This document shows positions 4,153-16,882 of a DNA stretch of 64,000 nucleotides, piece after piece. Source of the stretch: Parcubacteria group bacterium Licking1014_17 (GTDB lineage Bacteria > Patescibacteriota > Minisyncoccia > 2-02-FULL-40-12 > IGHO2-01-FULL-4-A); assembly GCA_007376485.1 (NCBI GenBank), contig VMGJ01000004.1, positions 6,717 to 70,716 on the forward strand. The letters are read 5' to 3'. Position numbers and translations under genes: made by a program. The notes beneath the pieces are model-generated. The model worked only from the letters and a program-made list of their open reading frames with translations, did no database searches and was not told the origin of the DNA. How positions within the stretch are numbered: the first letter of the stretch is position 1; every line of letters begins with the position of its first letter.

Positions 4153-7100
4153 ATGAATACCATCAAAAACAGCAAGGTATGGTTTATCGCAGTGCCATTG
4201 GTCGTTCTGGCAATTTTTGCCGTACCAATGCTAATCACGGAGAATGCTAATGCTATCTCCTTTGATACGTTAAATGCCAGGTTTGTTTCCTACGAAAACG
4301 TGCCGACAACTCTTTGCACAGATGAAGTGCATTTGGTCACTATGACCCTGCAAAATACCGGCACCGAAACATGGACTTCGGCCAAAAATATCAGGCTTGG
4401 CTCTCAAAATCCGGAGAACAACAATAACTGGGGATGGACCAGAGTTGACTTGGAAGAGCATGTTGTTGCGCCCAGCCAGCATTTGGTTCTTACTTTTTAC
4501 ATCCGCGCGCCTCTTACCGCCGGAACTTATAATTTCCAATGGGGGATGCTTCAGGAAAATGTTACTTGGTTTGGGGACTACACGGCTAATATGCCAATTC
4601 AGGTAAAAAATTGCGGCACGCCAACTCCTACCCCAACTCCGACACCGACTTCTTCTCCTACCGAATTAAAATGCCCGATTAGCAACGCGGCCAATAGAAC
4701 AATATTTACTTTCCCTGAAAGAAACTCGGAATATATTAGGGCCAACAGGACTCAAGAAGAAGCCACTTTCGGTCCGGATTCATTTAATTTAGCTAGTGGC
4801 ATTTATAAAGTTACTTTGGTGTCTTTTGATTGGCACTCAATTTATGGAGGTCAAAACCAGTCAAACGAACAATATAAAGTAATCCTGAAAAACGGAGGCG
4901 CTACGGTTGCCACCTCCAACGCCAGCGCCGATATTCCGGAAAGTCAGGATTGGCAGACAACGGTTACCAACACCGCGCTCGCGCTAACTGGTGCCGCGAA
5001 TTCAATAACCGCCATTCATGCTTTTTACCCGACTTCCAACGCCAACAGCTTGATTCCAATCTGCGCCGCGTTTGATTTGGTTCAACAGCAACCGGTTTTA
5101 CCTACTGTTAATATTAAGGCCAACGGCTCGGATGGACCTATCACGATTGATTACAATACTTCCACTACTTTGAGCTGGACATCCAAGAATGCCACGAGTT
5201 GTGTCGCTTCAAATGGCTGGAGCGGAACGAAGGCTACCTCTGGTTCCGAATCAACCGGTAATCTAACCTCAAATCACACCTACACTATAACCTGCAGCAA
5301 TGCCAACGGTTCCGACACCGATAGCGTGACTGTTAAAGTAAGGCAGCAAGAGGTTTTGCCCACCGTCGACATAAAAGCCAACGGCTCGGACGGGCCAATC
5401 ACGGTTGACTACAACACATCGGCTAATTTGAGCTGGACTTCAAGCAACGCTACGAGTTGTGTTGCTTCCGATGATTGGTCAGGCAGTAAAGCCACTTCAG
5501 GTTCGGAATCAACCGGTAATCTGACTTCAAATAAAACCTTCACTATAACTTGCAATAATCAATTCGGTTCCGATACCGACAGCGTAACTGTAAAAGTAAG
5601 ACAGGCCACATTGCCTACTGTCGACATCAAGGCCAACGGCTCTAATGGACCGATTACGATTAATTACAACACATCGGCTACCTTAAGTTGGAATTCAACC
5701 AATGCTGACTCTTGTGTCGCTTCAAACGGCTGGAGTGGAAACAAATCTACTTCGGGATCCGAATCAACGGGCAACCTGACCTCAAATAAAACATATACTA
5801 TCACCTGTTCAAATCAGTATGGTTCTGATTCAGACAGCGTAACGGTGAATGTGAGCCAGGCGGTTTTACCTACCGTTGACATTAAAGCTAATAGTTCGGA
5901 TGGGCCTATCACGATTAATTACAACACTTCAGCTACTTTGGGCTGGACATCAACTAATGCTGACAGCTGTGTTGCTTCAAATGGCTGGAGCGGAAACAAA
6001 TCAACCAGCGGCTCGGAATCAACAGGTAATCTAACATCAAACCACGTCTATACTATTACTTGTAGTAATACTAATGGCTCGGCCAGCGATTCTGTAACGG
6101 TTAACGTCCAGAACCAAGTAATACCTACGGTCAATCTTTTGGCTAATGGCTCCCACGGTTCGATTACGATTAATTACAACACTTCGGCTAATTTAAGCTG
6201 GGATTCAACTAATGCCAATTATTGTATTGCTTCAAATGATTGGAGCGGCAGTAAATCAACCAACGGTTCGGAATCAACGGGCAATCTGACAAACACCAGA
6301 ACTTATACTATCACCTGCTACAATAACAACGGCTCCGCCTCCGATTCAGTCACGGTTTACGTTAATAATCAGAACAACTATCCAACTGTTGATTTGCTCG
6401 CCAATGGTTCACATGGCTCAATTACGATTCCGAACAATACTTCCACTACTTTGAGCTGGAGCTCAAGCAATGCCAATACGTGTTATGCTTTCAACGGCTG
6501 GACCGGCACAAAGTCAACTTATGGTTCTGAATCAACCGGCAACTTAACTTACAGCAAGACTTATACAATCTCTTGCAGTAATTCTTACGGCTCCGCCTCC
6601 GATTCAGTCACGGTTAATGTCGGAAATCCCACGGGCCAAGACATGGTCAGCCTCCAGAAATTCGGTTCAAATATTACCCGCGGGCAGAGTGGCGACTACT
6701 CAACCATCACGGTTTACCCGAATGACACCGTCAGATTCGCGATTCACGTTACTTCACTGACTTCCAACACTCTGTATAACGTTAGAATAAGCGATGCCTT
6801 GCCGGCTGGGTTTACTTACGTGAACAGCAGCACGACACTTGACGGCATTCTTGTCAGCGACGGAATCACCAATACCGGCATCAACATCGGCACGTTGACT
6901 CCGAATCAGGAAAGAATTGTCCGTTTTGACGCAAGAGCCGCTTCAGGTTCCGGATTAACGGCTGGCACCTCGTATGTAAGCAATATCGCCTACGCCGACG
7001 CCGATAGTATGAACCGCGTTACGACCCAGCTTTCTATCACGATAGTCAATAGCACTGTTCCTAACGTTCCAACCGGTACTACGGGTACGGTTGCCATGGC

Positions 7101-7230
7101 CTTGGCCCTCGGCGCATTAGTGACTCTTATGTACATGGGCTACACCAGAACCGGCGCCTTCAAAAAGCGCGACGCCCAAAGCATCGCCAGGAAAAACAGA
7201 AACGACAAGAACAAGTTTAACTTCGCCTAA
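4153..7230 (+). CDS. large modular cell-surface protein: signal/TM, NBR1/CARDB-like beta-sandwich domain, TPTPTPTPTPT linker, unknown domain, 6 tandem 84-aa Ig-like repeats, DUF11-like domain, C-terminal sorting signal NVPTGT + TM + basic tail ending KFNFA
   Basis: 1025 aa; repeat consensus LPTVDIKANGSDGPITI.YNTS..LSW.S.NA.SCVAS.GWSG.K.TSGSESTGNLTSN.TYTITC.N..GSDSDSVTV.V; DUF11-like LP.G..YV.GST..DG block; terminal hydrophobic stretch followed by R/K-rich tail. Confidence 0.85.
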   Translation: MNTIKNSKVWFIAVPLVVLAIFAVPMLITENANAISFDTLNARFVSYENVPTTLCTDEVHLVTMTLQNTGTETWTSAKNIRLGSQNPENNNNWGWTRVDLEEHVVAPSQHLVLTFYIRAPLTAGTYNFQWGMLQENVTWFGDYTANMPIQVKNCGTPTPTPTPTPTSSPTELKCPISNAANRTIFTFPERNSEYIRANRTQEEATFGPDSFNLASGIYKVTLVSFDWHSIYGGQNQSNEQYKVILKNGGATVATSNASADIPESQDWQTTVTNTALALTGAANSITAIHAFYPTSNANSLIPICAAFDLVQQQPVLPTVNIKANGSDGPITIDYNTSTTLSWTSKNATSCVASNGWSGTKATSGSESTGNLTSNHTYTITCSNANGSDTDSVTVKVRQQEVLPTVDIKANGSDGPITVDYNTSANLSWTSSNATSCVASDDWSGSKATSGSESTGNLTSNKTFTITCNNQFGSDTDSVTVKVRQATLPTVDIKANGSNGPITINYNTSATLSWNSTNADSCVASNGWSGNKSTSGSESTGNLTSNKTYTITCSNQYGSDSDSVTVNVSQAVLPTVDIKANSSDGPITINYNTSATLGWTSTNADSCVASNGWSGNKSTSGSESTGNLTSNHVYTITCSNTNGSASDSVTVNVQNQVIPTVNLLANGSHGSITINYNTSANLSWDSTNANYCIASNDWSGSKSTNGSESTGNLTNTRTYTITCYNNNGSASDSVTVYVNNQNNYPTVDLLANGSHGSITIPNNTSTTLSWSSSNANTCYAFNGWTGTKSTYGSESTGNLTYSKTYTISCSNSYGSASDSVTVNVGNPTGQDMVSLQKFGSNITRGQSGDYSTITVYPNDTVRFAIHVTSLTSNTLYNVRISDALPAGFTYVNSSTTLDGILVSDGITNTGINIGTLTPNQERIVRFDARAASGSGLTAGTSYVSNIAYADADSMNRVTTQLSITIVNSTVPNVPTGTTGTVAMALALGALVTLMYMGYTRTGAFKKRDAQSIARKNRNDKNKFNFA
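5095..6620 (+). repeat. six tandem ~252-bp coding repeats (Ig-like domain array)
   Basis: Near-identical nucleotide blocks (e.g. ggctcggatgg(a/g)cc(t/a)atcacg, ggttc(c/g)gaatcaac(c/g)ggtaat) recurring every ~252 bp. Confidence 0.85.
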
Positions 7231-7262: not shown

Positions 7263-7898
7263 ATGAAATCGAGGGTCAGGTTCGCATTGCTATTTCTCAT
7301 TTCCGTTTTACTTCTCGTTATAGTGCTCAACGGGCGGTACTTTTACGCCAACGCGGTTTACTCGCTGAATCAGCCGGTATCCAATTCGACGCCGGCACCG
7401 GAAATCAGGGTGTTCATACCTCCGGTAAAAGAAGTCCCAAACGTAAAGCCTTTGCCCGACAGCGCTACATTGGTGATACCGAAAATCAATGTTTCCGTTC
7501 CTATTGTCTTCGATATCAACGGCAACAGCGAGAAAAGCATATATGACAATCTAAACCGCGGGGCGGTCCATTACTCAAACACCCCCAAGCCCGGCATGCT
7601 CGGAACAGCGATGATATTCGGCCATAGCTCTGATTACATCTGGAAGAGAAATGCCTATGCGTCCGTTTTCGCCCTTCTGGACAAACTGGAACCGGGAGAC
7701 GTGATGTACGTAAAGTACAGCGACGGCAGAAGATTTGATTTCAGGGTTAATCAAAAGATAATATTCGACCCTAATGCCAACGATTGGCGAATCCAAGAAA
7801 TGGCGTCCGCGAAAACGCCGACACTCATGCTGATAAGCTGTTGGCCGGTCGGCACCGCCAGCAAACGCATAGCCGTCGAAGCAATTGGGATTAAATAA
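7263..7898 (+). CDS. sortase-family transpeptidase (membrane-anchored)
   Basis: N-terminal TM; catalytic His in MIFGHSSDY, Cys in TLMLISCWP (TLxTC-like), Arg in SKRIAVEAI; immediately downstream of a substrate-like protein with sorting signal. Confidence 0.75.
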   Translation: MKSRVRFALLFLISVLLLVIVLNGRYFYANAVYSLNQPVSNSTPAPEIRVFIPPVKEVPNVKPLPDSATLVIPKINVSVPIVFDINGNSEKSIYDNLNRGAVHYSNTPKPGMLGTAMIFGHSSDYIWKRNAYASVFALLDKLEPGDVMYVKYSDGRRFDFRVNQKIIFDPNANDWRIQEMASAKTPTLMLISCWPVGTASKRIAVEAIGIK

Positions 7899-8062: not shown

Positions 8063-11000
8063 ATGGAAATCATACCGGCACCAGTAAAGACACCTTTTTA
8101 TAAAAAACCTGGTTTTTGGTTTCTGACCCTTTTGTTTTTGCTTCTCATCAGGGCGGAAGTTTATGTGTTGAGCGTTGACCGGCAGGTAAACCAAGTTGCC
8201 CTAATAAGCGCCACAGGCGCCGGCTGCACGACTCTTGCCCATCCCATCGCGGTAAAAGTCAGCATGCCGAATTCTCAAGAAAGCGGCTGGTTCATTGGGG
8301 TGGGTGATATCCCCGGCGCTGCCGCCTTTGACGAATCAAACATTAAAGCAGCTATTCAGAATTGGCCAGACGTTGACGGGCTTTTCGTTGGCACGGCCAA
8401 CGGTGATGGCGCGGGCGGTCCTGATGGTACTACCGATGACCGCGCCGGCTGGTTCATTATGGACTGGGGTTGTTTTAAAGATTTAGCCGGAAACGACATC
8501 GCTGAACAAGAATACGGCGTAAACGAAGGAGGAGACATATATGTGGGAACAAGCGCCACAAGCTTAAATGTTAACCCCACGCATCTATCGGGCAATCCCA
8601 ACGCTTCGGGCTGGAAGTATGTAAGCAGCATATCAGAATCCGGTTGTAGCAATTGTCTCAATAGTTTCGATATAGGATTAAATAACGGCGCTGAGTACAA
8701 ATATGTCTATTTTTGGAGCAATGGCAGTCCGGCGGGGTGCGCACCGAGTTGCATCCAACAAGAAATAGATAATGGCACCTGCAAATGCGGGATAGATGAT
8801 AGGTCTTGTGGTTGTCGTGCCAATGGAACCGTGGGGATTTCCGGTTCCAATGTTCAATATATAGAAATACTACAATCACAAAACGGCGGCACGCCTACCC
8901 CGACGCCCAAACCGACGTCTACGCCAACCTCGACACCAACCCAACAGAGTAATAATTCTCAGTGCGTCAGCATTTCCGCTCCCGACACAGTAGAGCAGGG
9001 CAAGACATTTGACGCCACGGTGGTAATGAAAAACACCGGCGCTAAGCCGTGGACCGACCCCGACAATCCGCCCGATCCGGTTGGAGGCAAAGCAACTCCT
9101 CATAAACTCGCTTCCACAAATCCACGTGCCAATATGACGTGGGGGCTGAATGAAGTCGGTCTGCCTGTCTCTAATGTCGACCCGGGAGAAAAGGCGACAT
9201 TTAATTTCAGCGTCACCGCTCCCGCAACCGCCGGCACTTACAGTTTCGCCTGGCAAATGAGAGAAGACTGGATTAAATGGTTTGGGGCGGTTTGCAGCAA
9301 AAACATACAAGTAGTCCAGCCGGCTCTCGTGAATAACGCCGAATGTGTGAGTATCACGGCGCCGGATTCGGTTGAAAAAGGCAAGACATTTGACGCCACG
9401 GTGGTAATGAAAAACACCGGCGCTAAGCCGTGGTCGGATCCCGACACCGACGGTAACAGTTACCCCCATAAACTCGGCTCGGATAATCCGAAAAATAATA
9501 TGAATTGGGGGCTTTCGAGAGTGAGCTTGCCGTTATCGCCCGTGTTGCCCGGCCAAACCGCGACGTTTGATTTTACCGCCACCGCTCCTTCGGTTGCCGG
9601 CATTTACGCGTTCGACTGGAGAATGGTTGAGGAATGGACCGAATGGTTTGGCACGGCGGGCTGTCATAAAAATATCGTTGTTACGGAACCCTACGTCCCT
9701 CCGCCCACCGTTGACATTAAAGCCAATAATTCTGATGGACCCATAACAATTCCCTACAACTCATCCGCCGCGTTATCATGGACATCTAAAAATACCGCGA
9801 GCTGTACCGCCTCGAACGGCTGGAGCGGAATGAAATCAATCAATGGTTCCGAATCAACCGGCGGTTTAATTTCTTCAAAAACTTATACTATTAGCTGTGT
9901 AGGCGCCAACGGAACGGCTTCTGACAGTGTTACTGTCAATGTCGAAAACCGGATATTACCCGTGGTGGATATCAATGCCAACGGCTCGGATGGACCGATT
10001 ACTGTTCCCTATAACTCATCGGTTTCTTTGACCTGGACATCAACCGATGCCGATAGTTGCTCTGCTTCCGGCGATTGGTCCGGCGGCAAAGCCACGGGCG
10101 GGACGGAAGATACCTCGGCGCTAATCAGCAGTAAGACCTATACAATCACTTGTAACAACCAGTACGGTTCGGATTCCGACAGCGTCACTGTCAATGTCGG
10201 CAGTCAAACTTTACCTTCGGTAGACGTAAAAGCCAACGGCTCGGACGGACCAATTACAATTCCTTATAATTCCACAGTGACATTGAGCTGGACTTCCATA
10301 AACGCTACTACTTGCGCCGCTTCCGGCGATTGGTCCGGCGGCAAAGCAATCAATGGTTCGGAAAATACCGGCTTACTGGCATTGAGCCGCATTTATACAA
10401 TCACCTGCGTAAATGGTTACGGTTCCGGTTCGGATAGCGTTGCCATTAATATAAGCAATCCAACCCCAACCCTGAACCCAACTCCAAGCCCGAATAGTTC
10501 CGGCTCGGTTAGCATTCAAAAATTCGGGATGAATATAACCAAGGGAGCGACGGTTGAATCCATAAGTATTACCGCCGATCCGAATGACACAGTCAGATTC
10601 GTCATCAGAGTGCGCTCTCTTTCCAATGGCTACGTCTTCAACGCCAGGGTGGTTGATACCTTGCCCAGCTGGTTAGGTTATGTAAACGGCAGCACTACTA
10701 TCGACGGTATTCTTGTCAGTGATGGCATAACGGGCGCCGGGCTGAATATCGGAACGCTTGCTCTGAATCAGGAAAAAATCATCCGTTTCGACACGGTGGT
10801 ATCGAACGCAAACATCGTCCCGCAGGGAACTTCTTACATTACAAATATCGCCTACATTGACGCCGACAACGTTGCCCGCTCCTCTGTCCAGCTGTCCATT
10901 AATATCGTAAACGGCTCCGTTCCCAACATTCCGACGGGAACTTTCGGCACAACTTTGCTGGCATTGGCGTTGAGCGCCTTACTGACGCTCGTCTACCTCA

Positions 11001-11068
11001 CATACAGAATTTTCAAGAAAAAAGGCGGCTCAAGCAAAGATAAAGATAAATTCAACTTTGCCTCTTAA
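8063..11068 (+). CDS. second large modular cell-surface protein: N-terminal TM, Cys-rich domain, PT linker, two duplicated NBR1/CARDB-like domains, three 84-aa Ig-like repeats, DUF11-like domain, sorting signal NIPTGT + TM + basic tail ending KFNFAS
   Basis: 1001 aa; shares repeat family, DUF11-like domain and C-terminal signal with ORF 4153..7230 but in a different module order. Confidence 0.85.
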   Translation: MEIIPAPVKTPFYKKPGFWFLTLLFLLLIRAEVYVLSVDRQVNQVALISATGAGCTTLAHPIAVKVSMPNSQESGWFIGVGDIPGAAAFDESNIKAAIQNWPDVDGLFVGTANGDGAGGPDGTTDDRAGWFIMDWGCFKDLAGNDIAEQEYGVNEGGDIYVGTSATSLNVNPTHLSGNPNASGWKYVSSISESGCSNCLNSFDIGLNNGAEYKYVYFWSNGSPAGCAPSCIQQEIDNGTCKCGIDDRSCGCRANGTVGISGSNVQYIEILQSQNGGTPTPTPKPTSTPTSTPTQQSNNSQCVSISAPDTVEQGKTFDATVVMKNTGAKPWTDPDNPPDPVGGKATPHKLASTNPRANMTWGLNEVGLPVSNVDPGEKATFNFSVTAPATAGTYSFAWQMREDWIKWFGAVCSKNIQVVQPALVNNAECVSITAPDSVEKGKTFDATVVMKNTGAKPWSDPDTDGNSYPHKLGSDNPKNNMNWGLSRVSLPLSPVLPGQTATFDFTATAPSVAGIYAFDWRMVEEWTEWFGTAGCHKNIVVTEPYVPPPTVDIKANNSDGPITIPYNSSAALSWTSKNTASCTASNGWSGMKSINGSESTGGLISSKTYTISCVGANGTASDSVTVNVENRILPVVDINANGSDGPITVPYNSSVSLTWTSTDADSCSASGDWSGGKATGGTEDTSALISSKTYTITCNNQYGSDSDSVTVNVGSQTLPSVDVKANGSDGPITIPYNSTVTLSWTSINATTCAASGDWSGGKAINGSENTGLLALSRIYTITCVNGYGSGSDSVAINISNPTPTLNPTPSPNSSGSVSIQKFGMNITKGATVESISITADPNDTVRFVIRVRSLSNGYVFNARVVDTLPSWLGYVNGSTTIDGILVSDGITGAGLNIGTLALNQEKIIRFDTVVSNANIVPQGTSYITNIAYIDADNVARSSVQLSINIVNGSVPNIPTGTFGTTLLALALSALLTLVYLTYRIFKKKGGSSKDKDKFNFAS
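8960..9690 (+). repeat. internal duplication (2 x ~380 bp) encoding paired NBR1/CARDB-like domains; contains an exact 54-nt repeat (8999-9052 = 9379-9432)
   Basis: ggcaagacatttgacgccacggtggtaatgaaaaacaccggcgctaagccgtgg occurs twice verbatim. Confidence 0.8.
9700..10455 (+). repeat. three tandem ~250-bp coding repeats of the same Ig-like family as 5095..6620
   Basis: Repeat consensus PTVDIKANGSDGPITIPYNSS..LSWTS.NA.SC.ASG.WSG.KA..GSE.TG.L.SSKTYTITC.N.YGSDSDSVTVNV. Confidence 0.8.
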
Positions 11069-11101
11069 ATATAATCGGAACCTCCGGCGCCAGCCGATAA
11101 T

Positions 11102-11740
11102 ATGAAACTCCGAAACCGGCTCATATTAATATTTATATCTCTGACGGTATTTTTTCTGATTATTCTCAATGGCAGATATTTATACGCGAACGTGTCCTAT
11201 CTGGTGAATAAGCCCACGCCTTTGGTAACGGCATCCAAACCTTCGGCGCAGATATTCATTCCTCCGGTGAAAGTGGCTTCGGGGCAAAAATCACTGCCCA
11301 ATAAAGCCATATTGGTAGTTCCAAAAATTAATGTCTCCATGCCGATAGTTTTCGGTATTAACGGAAACAGCATCAGCAGTATGTACGACGGGCTTAATCG
11401 CGGCGTGGTGCATTATTCCTTGTCTCCTATGCCCGGCACCATGGGCGCGGCGATGATTTTAGGACACAGTTCCGATTACATCTGGAAGAATAATCCTTAC
11501 GGAGCCGCTTTCGCTTTATTGAACAAACTCAAACCCGGGGATACGATGTTTGTGGAATACAGCGATGGTAGGAGGTTTAATTTTAAAGTCAACCAATCGG
11601 TGATATTCAACCCCCTCTCCGTTGATTCGGAAATTGAACTTATGCAGGCGGCAAAAGTGCCTTCCTTGATTCTTGTCAGCTGCTGGCCGGTCGGTTCAGT
11701 CGTCAAGCGGATAGCAGTAGAAGCGATAGCGATAAAATAG
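11102..11740 (+). CDS. sortase-family transpeptidase, paralog of 7263..7898
   Basis: Same architecture and catalytic motifs (MILGHSSDY, LILVSCWP, VKRIAVEAI); ~50% identical to the first sortase by eye. Confidence 0.75.
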   Translation: MKLRNRLILIFISLTVFFLIILNGRYLYANVSYLVNKPTPLVTASKPSAQIFIPPVKVASGQKSLPNKAILVVPKINVSMPIVFGINGNSISSMYDGLNRGVVHYSLSPMPGTMGAAMILGHSSDYIWKNNPYGAAFALLNKLKPGDTMFVEYSDGRRFNFKVNQSVIFNPLSVDSEIELMQAAKVPSLILVSCWPVGSVVKRIAVEAIAIK

Positions 11741-11794
11741 AAATTTGATAGAAACCGCCATTTTTGTTAGGATTTCTCATCATATCCGCCATAT

Positions 11795-11867
11795 CCGCCC
11801 CTAGCTCAACTGGCAGAGCAGATCCCTCTTAAGGATAAGGTTCTCGGTTCGACTCCGAGGGGGCGGA
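11795..11867 (+). tRNA. tRNA-Lys (anticodon CTT), atypical C1:G72 and G27/A43 mismatch
   Basis: Acceptor ccgcccc/ggggcgg, D-arm gctc-aactggca-gagc, anticodon loop ctCTTaa, T-arm ctcgg-ttcgact-ccgag; preceded by a duplicated 9-mer atatccgcc x2. Confidence 0.6.
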
Positions 11868-11922
11868 CAACATATTATTCCCAAAACTTGATTTTTTGAC
11901 CAGAAACTGAGATAATATAATT

Positions 11923-12180
11923 ATGAGAGGGTTCGTAAAATGCGCCCTGTGTGGTTGTATAATTTTAAAGATAGCTTTAGATATATTTCCTGTTGTCTGC
12001 AACCATTGCACAGAGGAAATAGAAAAAAAAGAGCAACCCCATATAGAAGTTTCAGTTTTTGCCAGTAAATATAATGCTCCGGCTAATAGATCATCGTATT
12101 ACTTATCTGGCGTGGGCTCGACTGGTGTGGTAGGGGCTATACCCGAATCCTTGAACGATTTTTCCAATAATCAGAAATAA
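11923..12180 (+). CDS. small Cys-containing hypothetical protein
   Basis: ORF only (85 aa; CALCGC...CNHC). Confidence 0.25.
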   Translation: MRGFVKCALCGCIILKIALDIFPVVCNHCTEEIEKKEQPHIEVSVFASKYNAPANRSSYYLSGVGSTGVVGAIPESLNDFSNNQK

Positions 12181-12320
12181 ATTAATTAAGTAAATCAATT
12201 CTAACTGCCCCAATACAGAAAATAGTGACGGGTTGGAATATTTTTCCTCCCGGCGGATAGATGAAACTCAGAAAATAGCACTTTTGGGAGTGCTATCTAT
12301 TAGAGAATCGGTTTTTTATA

Positions 12321-13631
12321 TTGTATTTTATGTTGAATCAAGAAGAACTTAAAGTATTACAGGAAATAGCCCACGAGAAAGGTGGTAAGTGTTTGTCTAA
12401 AGAATATAGGGGTTCCAATTTTAAGCTTCTCTGGGAGTGTAGCTTGGGTCACAGATGGCTATCTGCGCCCTGTAAAATAAAGGGAGGTAGATGGTGTCAT
12501 ACGTGCGCTGGAAATATCAAGTTAACTATAGATGAAATGCATAAAATCGCGAAACTTCGTGGTGGTAGATGTTTGTCTACGAAGTATACTAATATTGACA
12601 CAAAATTAGAATGGGAGTGTTCTGACGGTCATCATTGGGTTGCTACGCCAGATACTATTAAGGGAGGTGGATGGTGTCCCTATTGCGGTTTAAGAGGGAT
12701 AAGAGAGAATTTTTGCCGCTTGATATTAGAAAATATATTTAACAAAAATTTCCCTAAAGTAAGTCCAGTATGGCTAAAAACAAAAGACGGCAATAGAATG
12801 GAGCTTGATGGCTACTGTAATGATTTGAAGCTTGCTTTTGAATACCACGGAGAGCAACATTTTAAGAACTTAAAATTTTTTTACAGAAACCGTGGCTCGC
12901 TTCAACAAAGGATAACCTATGACAAGTACAAGAGGAAACTTTGTGAAAAAATACAGATAAAATTAATTGAAATCCCATATCTTATAGAGGACAAGGATAT
13001 ATATCAATACATACTAGCTAAATTGAAGGAGTTAAGAGTTAGAATCCCCAAACATAACGCCAAAAATATTTCAAAAATTAATAAGCAATATCTTAATAGT
13101 AGGTTGAAATATTTTTATCAAATAGCTAGTAAAAGAGGTGGTAAATGTTTATCTAGTGTCTATTTGGGTATCAATCATAAACTTAGATGGCGGTGCTCCG
13201 AGGGACACATATGGAAAGCAACGCCATCAAACGTAAAGAGGTACCACTGGTGCCCATCGTGTGCAGGCTGTAAGAGTTATACAATCAACAAGATTAGGGA
13301 GCTTGCGAAACTTCGTGGTGGTAAGTGTTTATCTACCGAGTATAAAGGCGCACATGGTAAACTTAAGTGGCAGTGCTCCAAAGGACACATATGGGAGACC
13401 ACACCGGACAGTATAAGGAACGGGACGTGGTGCCCCAAGTGCAATGGTAATATTAGTTACACTATTGATGAAATCAGCGAACTTGCGAAATCGTGCGGTG
13501 GCAAGTGCTTATCAAAAAAATATGGGGGTGCACATGGTAAACTTAAGTGGCAATGTTCTGAAGGACATATATGGGAAACTACACCTAATAGTATAAGGAG
13601 AGGGACATGGTGTCTAAAATGTAGAAGTTAA
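12321..13631 (+). CDS. multi-zinc-ribbon repeat protein with central Vsr/DUF559-like PD-(D/E)xK nuclease-fold domain
   Basis: Five ~45-aa repeats (R/K)GG(K/R)CLS..Y....KL.W.C..GH.W...P..I..G.WCP.C, each preceded by a helix (EI.ELAKLRGG). Central block ELDGY...LAFEYHGEQHF...YDKYKRKLCEKIQIKLIEIPY matches the lvIEvDG..H...D..R..L...G signature of DUF559/Vsr-like endonucleases. Confidence 0.6.
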   Translation: MYFMLNQEELKVLQEIAHEKGGKCLSKEYRGSNFKLLWECSLGHRWLSAPCKIKGGRWCHTCAGNIKLTIDEMHKIAKLRGGRCLSTKYTNIDTKLEWECSDGHHWVATPDTIKGGGWCPYCGLRGIRENFCRLILENIFNKNFPKVSPVWLKTKDGNRMELDGYCNDLKLAFEYHGEQHFKNLKFFYRNRGSLQQRITYDKYKRKLCEKIQIKLIEIPYLIEDKDIYQYILAKLKELRVRIPKHNAKNISKINKQYLNSRLKYFYQIASKRGGKCLSSVYLGINHKLRWRCSEGHIWKATPSNVKRYHWCPSCAGCKSYTINKIRELAKLRGGKCLSTEYKGAHGKLKWQCSKGHIWETTPDSIRNGTWCPKCNGNISYTIDEISELAKSCGGKCLSKKYGGAHGKLKWQCSEGHIWETTPNSIRRGTWCLKCRS

Positions 13632-13748
13632 GCCAAAGTATTGTTAATAGTTTTAATCTTTTCAATTTCCGTTCCAACCGTCTCCCAGGCGGACTGAATG
13701 GAGTGAAGGACGGTCGAAGCCCCGCAACTGTTTACGGGACGTAAGGAA

Positions 13749-14042
13749 TCAATTTTTTAGTGTCTCAAGATTTATCTGATTACTATATTCGATAAATCTA
13801 TTGGTATTATATCTAATTTCAATCAATTGAACCTGATAAAAACTATTATCATATCTTTGATCCTTATGTCCACCAGCGTATATTATTTTAATCATATTTT
13901 CTTCTTTTATATAAACAATTCTTGCACCCCGACGTTTGCACACATTTTCCTCTGGAAGATTTATCCCAGCGTGAAAGGTTTTATTTTGTAACTCCTTATT
14001 TTTAATGTGATGTACTGGGGTTTCTCCTTGGCATTTTACCAT
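13749..14042 (-). CDS. small RelE/ParE-like putative toxin (tentative)
   Basis: 97 aa; RRGARIVYIKEENMIKIIYAGGHKDQRY resembles the G.YRIIY...V.IL.IGHRKD.Y core of RelE/ParE; 107 nt downstream of the Panacea-domain gene. Confidence 0.35.
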   Translation of the reverse strand: MVKCQGETPVHHIKNKELQNKTFHAGINLPEENVCKRRGARIVYIKEENMIKIIYAGGHKDQRYDNSFYQVQLIEIRYNTNRFIEYSNQINLETLKN

Positions 14043-14149
14043 CTATACTTAAATAACGGATAGCTCTAGACATCTCTTTACCTAGGGTTTTATACCATCT
14101 GTCGTGGCATTTTTTTATGTCATCGAGAACATCAGAATGAATCATTACT

Positions 14150-14677
14150 TTAATCATCATTCAGATCCATCTCTCCAAAGCTATTCCGGTAGAATGCAAG
14201 ATAATATGGGATTTCCTCACCATACCCAACCATCTTGTAAGGAGGCTCAGACTGGGCTATTTTTTCTAGATCGCCCGCGGTTTCGAGTTTAAACTTTTCG
14301 ACTAGTTGTTTTAATATCCTTAATTCATTCTCATCAAAAATTTTAATATTAGGTTCGGAATTGGGTATGATTTTTTCCAAACCATAACTATTTGCCTCTT
14401 GGATATCAATAATGCCTTCATTTTTTAAGTCATTTAATGCTTTGTAGAATAATTTTGGTTCTGGCATCGGCCCATAGTCTTTTTTTGTATAAGGCAACCC
14501 CGTCAAAGACTTTCCTCGCGTAAGTTCAAACAATGTAAAATCAATAAAATATAAGAGTTTTGCCAGCTTCTTTTTTCCAACATCAAACCCCCCGTTTTTG
14601 GCTATAAACAAAACTGCATTCTTAAACTTTTCCTTATTATATTGGCTCTTTTTTGATAGTAACATTAGTAAAATCAT
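14150..14677 (-). CDS. Panacea-domain (DUF4065, SocA/GepA-like) putative antitoxin
   Basis: 175 aa; NAVLFIAKNGGFDVGKKKLAKLLYFIDFTLFELTRGKSLTGLPYTKKDYGPMPE matches the Panacea domain KL.KLLYF.D core. Confidence 0.6.
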   Translation of the reverse strand: MILLMLLSKKSQYNKEKFKNAVLFIAKNGGFDVGKKKLAKLLYFIDFTLFELTRGKSLTGLPYTKKDYGPMPEPKLFYKALNDLKNEGIIDIQEANSYGLEKIIPNSEPNIKIFDENELRILKQLVEKFKLETAGDLEKIAQSEPPYKMVGYGEEIPYYLAFYRNSFGEMDLNDD

Positions 14678-14960
14678 TATATCAGATTATGTATAAAAAG
14701 TTGACAACTAGTTGAATATGAACATAGTATGAACTTTCGTCAATATTGTTATGGTTTTTGTCCGAATCGGCAGAGATAGTTATCTATTTCATGAATAAGC
14801 AGTTTTAACCGATTTCCCAATGTCCCTCCATTTATTTAACTCCAATAATAAGCGTTCCAATTCCGTCCCACTAGGCGGACAAGTTTTATAATCTCTCCCA
14901 GAAGTGGATATTTCCCCCGCTTTTTTGTGATAAGTTATAAATAGTATCAATTTTACGTCT

Positions 14961-15734
14961 ATGAAGAAAATACTATTGATCGTCTTTGTTTCCGCCGCGG
15001 CGATGGTGTTAGCCGTGTCTTCCGCCCGAGCCGACAATGTTTACGCGATTACCGCTAGCCCCTCATATTCTGACACTTTCACTCTTGGCGGATCGGCTTT
15101 GGTCGGGTACAAAATTACATCTACCAATAGCGATGGTCAGACCGGTTGTAATGCCAGCGACGGCACGTCGGCTGTTGTCACTATAATAGCCCCTGACCAT
15201 ATAACTCCAACTCCGCCTTCGCTTACATTCACTAAATGCAGTGTCGCTAATTCTAACATTCAGGATGTGGTGTTTACCGCCGATCAAGCCGGCGATTATA
15301 TCATCGGCGCTTCGGCTTCCGACGCCGGAATTGGAACTTATGACACAGTGGCACACGGGATATTCACGCTTCATGTTTTGCCCGGATCAAGTCCAACCCC
15401 GTCTCCATCCGAAACACCTACACCTACACCATCCCCCACACCAACTCCTTCTCCAACGCCTACGCCGAGTCCTACCCCATCGCCATCTCCGACACCCACA
15501 ACGACTTTAACTCCATCGCCCACGCCGACTCCTTCTCTATCTCCCACACCGACTTCTTCCCCGACACCTACACTAACCCCGACTCCGACCCCCTCGCCCA
15601 CACCCACCCCGTCATCTACGCCATCGCCCTCGCCTTCACCATCAGACAAATTTAAAATGCCAACAATTGACAATTTCTTTATTCTAAATAAATTCCGAGC
15701 AATTTGGGCCAAGTGGCATCAGTTGGGATTCTGA
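14961..15734 (+). CDS. secreted protein: signal peptide, ~140-aa N-terminal domain, long (PTPSPT)n low-complexity linker
   Basis: ORF translation; signal peptide [24 protein letters not shown]. Confidence 0.6.
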
Positions 15735-16882
15735 TCAAGACGCCACAATTTTTGAACGCAATCAATAATTATCGGAGTCGCCCGAACAATCTCTTCCTTC
15801 GTGGTCCATCTGCCCATGGTTATGCGGATGTTGTCGTTTTTGGTGGCCCCGATGGCTTTAAGAACATGGGATGGGCCGGTTTCGTTCGCCGTGCAGGCGG
15901 AGCCGATTGAAACACCAACGCCGTTTTTATCAAGAAGCAAAACCAGCATTTCGCCGGCTATCCCCTTAAAAGAAACATTTATATTATTAGGCAGGCGGTT
16001 TTTTATGTCGCCGTTTATGGAAGCACCCGGGATTTTGAGCAGTTCACCAATTAAATAATTTCTTAATTTCAGAAGCTGTTTTGATTCCCCTGTTTTTCGG
16101 AAGTCGGCGATTTTCAGCGCTTCGGCAAAAGCGGAAATCGCGGGAACATTTACTGTGCCCGGCCTCAATCCTCTTTCATGGTCGCCGCCGTATAATACCG
16201 GCTCCAATTCAATCCCCCTTTTTATATAAAGGCACGCCGCTCCTTTTGGCCCGTAAATTTTTGAACTGTTTATAGTCATCAAGTCCACGTTCAGTTTGTT
16301 GGCATCAAGCGGGAGGAAACCGGACGCCTGGCAGGCATCGGTATGAAAAAACGCCGGCGCGCCAGTTTCTTTTCTTTTCTTTTTTATAACTTCGCCTATT
16401 TTTGATATCGGTTGAATTGTGCCGATTTCGTTGCTGGCGCAGATTACCGAAATAAGAGTGGTATCCCTCCTGATCGACTTCGCGATATCTCCCGGATTTA
16501 CCAATCCGCTATTATTAACTCCGATGTAGGTAATTTTAAACCCCTCCTTTCCCAAATGCTCAAAAACATCCGAGACCGATTTATGCTCTATTTGGGTAGT
16601 AATTAAATGCCTGCCCTTGTTTTTGTTGGCTCTGGCAACCCCCAAAATGGCGAGGTTGTTGGATTCGGTGCCGGAACCGGTAAAAATTATTTCTTCCGGC
16701 CTTGAATTCAGGACTTCGGCTATGGCTCGTCTGGATTTCTCAAGTTCTTTAGCTGCTTCCCTGCCGATTTTATGTAGAGATGAAGAATTCCCGTACTTCT
16801 CAAGCTGTTTAACATAAAAATCCCTGATAATGGGGTCAATGGGCGTCGCGGCGGCATAATCCAAATAAACATACTTTTTCAT
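15719..16882 (-). CDS. cysteine desulfurase (class V aminotransferase, IscS/NifS family)
   Basis: 387 aa; LDYAAATP N-terminus, PLP-lysine region SSKIYGPKG, overall NifS/IscS layout. Confidence 0.85.

Follow-up and report, generated by a model that had tools for sequence, protein, structure and literature searches.

Antitoxins of the Panacea type (PanA) have been described together with toxins of several kinds, the partners listed including MqsR-like, Fic/Doc, toxSAS, PemK and ParE domains (Kurata et al., 2022, PNAS, PMC8832971). The predicted PanT clusters in the part of Dataset S1 considered here include T14 (HigB-2-like), T28 (YoeB/ParE-like) and T59 (RelE/ParE), with HHpred matches to HigB-2 (99.7%), YoeB/ParE and RelE/ParE; these clusters are paired with 'noNTD' PanA in the order antitoxin-then-toxin, at spacings of 12, -4 and -17 (PMC8832971). 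A stand-alone Panacea domain can neutralise directly, whereas multidomain PanAs make use of accessory domains; in the MqsR:PanA pair of Burkholderia fungorum, where the antitoxin is composed of ZBD, HTH and Panacea, it is the ZBD and not Panacea that neutralises (Ernits et al., 2023, PMC10440598). The founding Panacea/DUF4065 protein is SocA, from the type VI toxin–antitoxin system SocAB of Caulobacter. SocA is a ClpXP adaptor, and SocB is not known to be RelE-like.

The locus described here is located on the minus strand of a 64,000-nt stretch of DNA from the Parcubacteria group bacterium Licking1014_17, hereafter the window. We are rather confident that it represents, as a whole, a PanAT-type type II toxin–antitoxin bicistron in which the toxin frame is broken by a single A (Table 1). 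It shares with the PanAT pairs in the compared part of the dataset the stand-alone Panacea protein, the order antitoxin-then-toxin, a short overlap and a toxin of predicted RelE/ParE fold. As RelE/ParE-fold PanTs accompanying PanA have already been catalogued, the architecture is of a known kind. What is new is the toxin sequence family, for which there is no model and which is apparently confined to Patescibacteria, together with the extension at the C-terminus of the toxin and the disrupted state of the gene in this genome. While the toxins in that part of the dataset are recognisable by HHpred or annotation, the family found in the window has no detectable sequence similarity to Pfam, NCBIfam or PDB entries, is about 40 aa longer and carries a C-terminal helix-strand element; its representative here is frameshifted. 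The part of Dataset S1 compared contains no Patescibacteria (PMC8832971).

In the arrangement of the locus, panA (14665/14677 to 14150) would encode a stand-alone Panacea-domain antitoxin, and the toxin gene (14160/14157 to 13749) begins within the last panA codons, behind a GGAGAG ribosome-binding site inside panA. Because the toxin start and its ribosome-binding site lie inside panA, the two genes would be co-transcribed and translationally coupled. The intact toxin, to judge by its fold and its invariant residues, would cleave mRNA at the ribosome, and PanA would bind it directly and so keep it inactive. In the sequenced form, presumably only a harmless 52-aa N-terminal toxin fragment would be made, together with an intact PanA.

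Table 1. Coordinates of the features of the panA–toxin locus, numbered from the first base of the window.
Feature	Position	Strand	Description
Perfect 10-bp palindrome CAACTAGTTG	14705..14714		Just upstream of the -10 element; possible operator
Candidate extended -10 element TGATATAAT	14676..14684	-	Read from the sequence; 10 nt before ATG 14665
panA	14150..14677	-	Maximal ORF of 175 aa; predicted stand-alone Panacea-domain antitoxin gene
Shine-Dalgarno sequence GGAGAG, predicted for the toxin	14171..14176	-	Inside the Gly-Glu codons of PanA; from the sequence
Toxin gene, 5′ segment	14029..14160	-	Codons 1-44 (MMIKVMIHS...DGKMP), in ORF 14002-14160; aligns with the N-termini of homologues
AA doublet with one extra A	14028..14029	-	Single base in homologues; from DNA and protein alignment
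Toxin gene, 3′ segment	13749..14027	-	GETPVHH... to stop TGA; carries H63, R80, GGH98KD, Y103 and R116

A sequence-only reading of the locus had proposed that the 175-aa ORF encodes a PanA-type protein. The proposal holds: the ORF contains KLAKLLYFIDF, and the protein matches Pfam PF13274 (SocA_Panacea) with 46.4 bits (E 8.4e-12; gathering cut-off 25.7), its residues 38-148 covering positions 1-113 of the 113 in the profile. The deposited annotation (CEN90_469) places the start at ATG 14665 and gives a protein of 171 aa. Protein P0054 is 100% identical to PanA of the window, and the PanA genes that precede toxin homologues encode proteins with 65-70% identity to it. In the AlphaFold2 (AF2) model (pLDDT 90.9), PanA forms one globular domain up to about residue 160, the last 10 residues or so being disordered, and neither this model nor the Pfam scan revealed an HTH, ZBD or PAD1 add-on. 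Given that PanA has no accessory domain, either Panacea itself or the conserved C-terminal tail would have to neutralise the toxin. This tail, FYRNSFGEMDL, is nearly invariant among PanA homologues, which would make it the obvious candidate for toxin binding; part of its conservation is accounted for by the embedded ribosome-binding site and start codon of the toxin. PanA of the window does not qualify as a SocA protein, scoring 14 bits with the NCBIfam SocA equivalog NF047745 (cut-off 190). When its model was compared with PDB structures by Foldseek, weak, uninformative winged-helix matches were the only ones obtained (E at least 0.087, TM below 0.5). In PHROGs, PanA matches two families of unknown function, and PADLOC matched neither PanA nor the toxin.

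Beyond panA lies a 97-aa ORF (13749-14042, minus strand) that contains ...GARIVYIKEENMIKIIYAGGHKDQRY and is deposited as a hypothetical protein (P0001, CEN90_468). The initial description of this ORF, with 107 nt between it and the panA ORF and an in-frame TAG directly before its ATG 14042, was confirmed; the interpretation of the 107 nt as a non-coding gap was not, as the interval encodes codons 1-44 of the toxin in an offset frame. It is filled by a third ORF (14002-14160, minus strand; 52 aa), whose frame is offset by one base and which opens with ATGATGA across the panA stop codon (TAA 14152-14150). The toxin start consequently overlaps the end of panA, by 11 nt if counted from ATG 14160 and by 8 nt if counted from ATG 14157, contrary to the view that the two genes are neither overlapping nor coupled. 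The first 44 codons of the 52-aa ORF match the N-termini of 18 intact homologues residue for residue; past the shift, the frame from this start meets a stop 8 codons further on, at 14004-14002. Upon removal of the extra A, codons 1-44 of the 52-aa frame run on into the GETPVHH frame, which yields a product of 136-137 aa (the corrected toxin), for which the protein alignment is collinear across the junction (...DGKMP-GE.PVH...). At the DNA level, the window reads GCC-AA-GGAGAA where the five aligned loci (L001, L003, L006, L007 and L009) read GCC-(A/T)-GGnGA; the shift site is CCAAGGAG in the window and CCAGGAG without the extra A. According to these alignments, the two small ORFs belong to one toxin gene split by a single base, and the annotated 97-aa hypothetical protein is a shortened call of that gene. 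An alternative genetic code was dropped as an explanation, the neighbouring genes being normal in table 11.

The window therefore has no uninterrupted toxin ORF, owing to the 1-nt insertion after codon 44, and it does have overlapping antitoxin and toxin cistrons with a ribosome-binding site for the toxin. The distance from GGAGAG is 10 nt for ATG 14160 and 13 nt for ATG 14157, and the FGEMDL tail whose codons hold this site hardly varies among PanA homologues. The earlier remark that no obvious Shine-Dalgarno sequence was present had concerned the wrong ATG. Likewise, the suggestion of separate transcription or of a leaderless toxin mRNA gives way to the canonical layout of an overlapping antitoxin-then-toxin bicistron.

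The corrected toxin retrieves about 30 intact homologues (54-64% identity, 95-99% coverage, mostly 127-139 aa). All of them derive from metagenomes, the named ones are from Patescibacteria or Minisyncoccales, and none has a Pfam domain. Some 23 representatives at 50% identity were found among 1.84 billion proteins, and, among 185,579 species-representative genomes, 3 carry a member of the family (Minisyncoccales, Ca. Nealsonbacteria and a Patescibacteria-group MAG); the IMG/VR viral contigs scanned contained no relatives. In each of ten contexts, the gene directly before the toxin homologue is a PF13274 gene whose end overlaps the toxin start by 8-38 nt: by 8 nt in the five loci aligned above, by 14 nt in L020 and L021, by 23 nt in L013 and L018, and by 38 nt in L016. 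The other flanking genes vary (NUDIX/MscS, S1/gyrA, Fic, GH130, IF3/L35/L20, Asn synthase, peptidase M17, phage integrase, serine recombinase), and the ten contexts include the remotest family members, with 25-36% identity to the toxin of the window, which adjoin integrase or recombinase genes. By sequence, then, this looks like a small, unannotated toxin family whose named members come only from Patescibacteria and which, so far, lies downstream of PanA in all contexts examined. The pairing is, by these neighbourhoods, conserved and not coincidental, and the idea of an orphan Panacea protein with a chance neighbour does not survive in the form in which it was posed. PanA may nonetheless be an orphan in another sense, as the toxin is disrupted in the sequenced form and PanA is intact. 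As to the adjacency expected in other genomes, it was found in all ten contexts, with an overlap in place of the gap. The case of L016, in which an intact toxin was called as 91 aa by the gene caller because PanA continues into the toxin gene, indicates that the picture of a gap followed by a short ORF can also arise from gene calling.

The corrected 137-aa protein was modelled with AF2 on a 19-sequence alignment (pLDDT 90.1, pTM 0.87). The model shows the beta-alpha-alpha-beta-beta-beta order of RelE/ParE folds (beta1 4-8, alpha1 9-21, alpha2 26-40, beta2 62-67, beta3 80-87, beta4 90-98), followed by a C-terminal extension of two helices (102-105, 107-119) and one short strand (123-125). The PDB matches that Foldseek places at ranks 1-39 all belong to the RelE/ParE superfamily and comprise Cami1 (8phb/8phj), RelK (3oei), YoeB (2a6r/6l8e), HigB2, HP0894, YafQ, RelE, HigB1, ParE2 and PrpT; probabilities are at least 0.7 for most and target-normalised TM-scores reach 0.72, with modest E-values of 4e-3 to 0.4. 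The supposition of a RelE/ParE-like partner is thus supported for the full-length corrected protein. In a 97-aa product alone, beta1, alpha1 and alpha2 would be missing. Sequence comparisons failed to reveal the same kinship. The corrected toxin matched nothing in Pfam and NCBIfam at E<=1 or in PHROGs, the 19 family members matched no RelE-type family at E<=10, and the family profile gave 0 matches to PDB sequences at E<=10. When the profile was compared by hhalign with hand-entered sequences of E. coli YoeB, RelE and YafQ, probabilities stayed under 1% and the beta3 motif (GxRIVY / GYRLVY) was all that aligned. According to the model, the toxin has a RelE/ParE fold, with no link to known families detectable at the sequence level.

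Residues D14, L37, G45, H63, A64, R80, G97, H98, Y103 and R116 are invariant throughout the family. Of these, beta2 holds a His and beta3 an Arg, while a His and a Tyr come just after beta4; H63, R80, H98 and Y103 may be akin to the catalytic residues of YoeB and YafQ. The predicted fold, combined with these four invariant residues in or near predicted beta-strands, leads us to infer that the intact toxin is probably a ribosome-dependent mRNA endonuclease. A toxin that poisons DNA gyrase in the manner of ParE, or that has some other activity, is in our opinion unlikely. ParE2 and ParDE structures do figure among the Foldseek matches, at ranks 19, 32 and 50, and the toxin family has a C-terminal helical extension, the C-terminal region being important for ParE toxicity; but the mRNA interferases (Cami1, RelK, YoeB, HigB2, YafQ and RelE) all rank above every ParE, and the four invariant residues (His, Arg, His, Tyr) may be akin to those that YoeB and YafQ use in catalysis, ParE toxins not being known to have such residues.

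The remaining alternatives concern the split of the gene. To read the 97-aa ORF as an entire toxin gene of RelE/ParE type behind a genuine 107-nt spacer, transcribed separately, leaderless or adjacent by coincidence, is in our view scarcely credible. The spacer encodes, in the adjacent frame, the conserved N-terminal part of the family's proteins, one strand followed by two helices, and the full-length homologues, of 127-139 aa, are without exception single ORFs overlapping panA; ATG 14042, with which the ORF begins in agreement with the deposited call, is preceded neither by a Shine-Dalgarno sequence nor by a promoter call. Equally hard to sustain is a programmed +1 ribosomal frameshift at CCA-AGG that would limit synthesis of the full-length toxin. 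The sequence CCAAGGAGA, in which the shift site is located, includes an SD-like AAGGAG, and a Pro codon in the P site followed by AGG loosely recalls those +1 sites at which shifting is favoured by a slow codon in the A site. The shift is absent from all homologues, however: L001 reads CCA GGA GAA in a single frame, full-length homologues are all single ORFs, and the extra base is absent from the five DNA-aligned loci, so that the pattern of programmed frameshifting is not found. Moreover, re-pairing from CCA to CAA is not slippery, and scarcity of AGG/AGA would be improbable in an AT-rich genome. A second member of the family (L019) is broken by a quite different lesion, which fits decay and not recoding.

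The question is then whether the extra A is real. The toxin of the window deviates from the family in 6 of 54 conserved columns, as against 6 and 8 in the intact proteins P0006 and P0027, and the corrected toxin keeps every family-invariant residue. As the gene is otherwise pristine, the insertion must be either very recent or an artefact. We favour, by a modest preference, a very recent inactivating mutation over an assembly or sequencing error. The latter retains a sizeable though lesser likelihood; the PanAT module of the organism would then be intact and functional, its toxin having 136 aa. In its favour are a toxin gene perfect save for one base, with no more conserved-column deviations than intact homologues, and the origin of the other disrupted copy. 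This copy, L019 (VMGP01000035.1), is from the MAG Athens1014_10, which by its name comes from the same project, and its toxin has lost beta3-beta4, and with them R80 and H98, through a 67-nt deletion; in L018 (GCA_964605615.1), whose other ~360 aligned bases are 100% identical to those of L019 and which encodes the same 172-aa PanA, the toxin is intact. Judging by the names, both disrupted copies stem from MAGs of one project, and a pipeline artefact could be at their origin. On the other hand, the insertion turns A into AA, with no long homopolymer, and is not at a typical error site, and base-calling can hardly account for a deletion of 67 nt, so that real toxin-null alleles seem to occur in these populations; L019 suggests in addition a precedent for loss of the toxin with retention of PanA. 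Exact-DNA scans of genome and metagenome contigs for the shift site, with and without the extra base, gave no match, nor did a look-up of the 175-aa PanA ORF for a second assembly of the strain.

When the toxin that we predict to be an mRNA endonuclease is set beside characterised systems, the classical type II pairs YefM-YoeB, RelBE and DinJ-YafQ, with their ribosome-dependent mRNA interferases, share with it the fold (target-normalised TM of 0.64-0.72 to YoeB 2a6r, RelK 3oei, YafQ 4q2u and RelE 1wmi), the overlapping antitoxin-then-toxin operon and, it seems, a conserved Arg on beta3 with His/Tyr near the end of the fold. They differ in the antitoxin, which is Panacea here and Phd/YefM or RelB/DinJ there, and in the toxins, between which there is no sequence homology; unlike YoeB, RelE and YafQ, the family of the window has a conserved 12-residue GINLPxENxxKRKG loop and the C-terminal extension. 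The best fold match is Cami1 (8phb, 8phj), a CRISPR-associated ribosome-dependent RNase of CARF-RelE type. It alone aligns with the whole toxin, extension included (133-137 columns, query-normalised TM 0.51-0.56), but it is a cA4-activated fusion of 370-380 aa with no antitoxin and has 11-14% identity. The RNase toxin MqsR also has a RelE-like fold. The MqsR:PanA pair resembles the present one in combining PanA with an RNase toxin of (here predicted) RelE fold, and differs in that PanA of the window has no extra domain; MqsR is not among the top 50 Foldseek matches of the toxin. With SocAB, the resemblance is limited to the Panacea protein, which in the window fails the SocA equivalog.

The reading of the locus as an overlapping bicistron with one extra base removes an apparent anomaly, as a distant, uncoupled partner of PanA becomes a textbook arrangement. 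The hyperpromiscuous Panacea antitoxin gains a further partner, a small unnamed toxin family of predicted RelE fold that occurs in the Candidate Phyla Radiation, a group not represented in the compared part of the published PanAT dataset. PanA of the window, having no accessory domain, would with its toxin also offer a compact test case for whether Panacea alone or the FYRNSFGEMDL tail acts against a RelE-type toxin. Current concepts are left unchanged by the finding. A bolder version, which we regard as improbable, is that toxin-null alleles recur in groundwater Parcubacteria, with PanA kept for a toxin-independent role, and that the toxin stands for a branch of the RelE fold that is new, restricted to Patescibacteria and, in its full-length architecture, most like the effector domain of Cami1. 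If this were true, PanA might serve, for instance, in immunity against incoming mobile elements or phages bearing PanT; alternatively, it might have a sensor function, as proposed for Panacea.

With respect to the surroundings, an island marked by flanking direct repeats or by duplication of a tRNA-Lys att site was considered and rejected: there is no tRNA-derived repeat, and a 28-nt GC-rich similarity (GTCCGCCT..GGAACG) flanking the cassette is not significant, with a score of 28 against a shuffle maximum of 31. An Rfam scan of 11000-16000 returned tRNA-Lys only.

Upstream of panA, the palindrome CAACTAGTTG is not conserved in the corresponding regions of homologues, and its role as an operator is speculative. 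In these homologous loci the promoter motif is TTGACA-17-TGnTATAAT and the ATG follows its -10 element after 5-7 nt, a distance that implies leaderless panA mRNAs. The candidate element TGATATAAT near ATG 14665 would likewise be expected to give a near-leaderless panA mRNA in the window. The ancestral panA ATG has been lost here, where AGC CAA is found in place of the ATG CGA of homologues, and the N-terminus of PanA in the window is 8-12 residues longer than theirs.

Upstream of four panA homologues (loci L001, L003, L006 and L009 from other assemblies; for instance L006:2260-2306), the arrangement TTGACA-17-TGnTATAAT is found. Only 5-7 nt separate the -10 element from the ATG in these loci, and no SD is present; judging from the sequence, these two features make it probable that the corresponding mRNAs are leaderless. 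In the window (14665-14684), TGATATAAT is retained upstream of panA, and the N-terminus of the encoded protein differs from that of the four homologues and is longer. When the PanA model (ma2503b6cdea0, window 14150-14665) was compared with the PDB, the sole fold matches were weak winged-helix ones (MarR, PadR, ORC/Cdc6 WH) with E of at least 0.087, and no convincing Panacea-domain match was present in the PDB copy searched.

A toxin gene lesion was also observed in a relative. The homologue from the Athens1014_10 MAG (VMGP01000035.1, L019:809-1180) has a 67-nt internal deletion, resulting in the loss of beta3-beta4 of the predicted fold, whereas in GCA_964605615.1 (L018:2997-3398) the gene is intact, the DNA being otherwise 100% identical. 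The 172-aa PanA is identical in both. In a Ca. Nealsonbacteria MAG (L016:2501-3455), the reading frame of a 198-aa PanA overlaps the toxin gene by 38 nt; this toxin gene is intact, and the gene caller shortened it to 91 aa, thereby creating a spurious 83-nt "gap" that resembles the one first described between panA and the toxin ORF in the window.

The most divergent PanA-toxin pairs (L020:96-1112 and L021:1908-3671) adjoin a tyrosine integrase and a serine recombinase, and these neighbours suggest that in some lineages the cassette is carried by small integrative elements.

Features surrounding the cassette in the window, and two ORF pairs located elsewhere in it
Feature	Position	Strand	Remark
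First ORF pair (~1000 aa, then ~210 aa)	4153-7230 + 7263-7898	+	
Second ORF pair (~1000 aa, then ~210 aa)	8063-11068 + 11102-11740	+	In tandem with the first
DUF4379-repeat protein, 436 aa	12321-13631	+	Between tRNA-Lys and the cassette
GC-rich hairpin-forming motif GTCCGCCT..GGGAGACGG..TTGGAACG	13654-13679 and 14853-14880	-	Either side of the cassette
257-aa protein	14961-15734	+	Signal-peptide-like N-terminus

The 436-aa protein contains at least five DUF4379 treble-clef zinc-finger repeats (GGKCLS...KL.W.C..GH.W...P....G.WCP.C) flanking a central segment (...ELDGYCNDLKLAFEYHGEQHF...) for which no Pfam match was found. The similarity between the two copies of the hairpin motif is not significant when compared with shuffles (score 28; shuffle maximum 31); one copy was called terminator-like (14862-14879, + strand). 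The 257-aa protein, also devoid of Pfam matches, ends in a long, low-complexity, (S/T)P-rich tail, and GC content rises to 0.5-0.6 across the repeat of its gene. As for the tandem ORF pairs, which look like a duplicated surface-protein/sortase unit, the small ORF of the second pair is a sortase (PF04203), and its large ORF encodes repeated domains and a hydrophobic segment at the C-terminal end.
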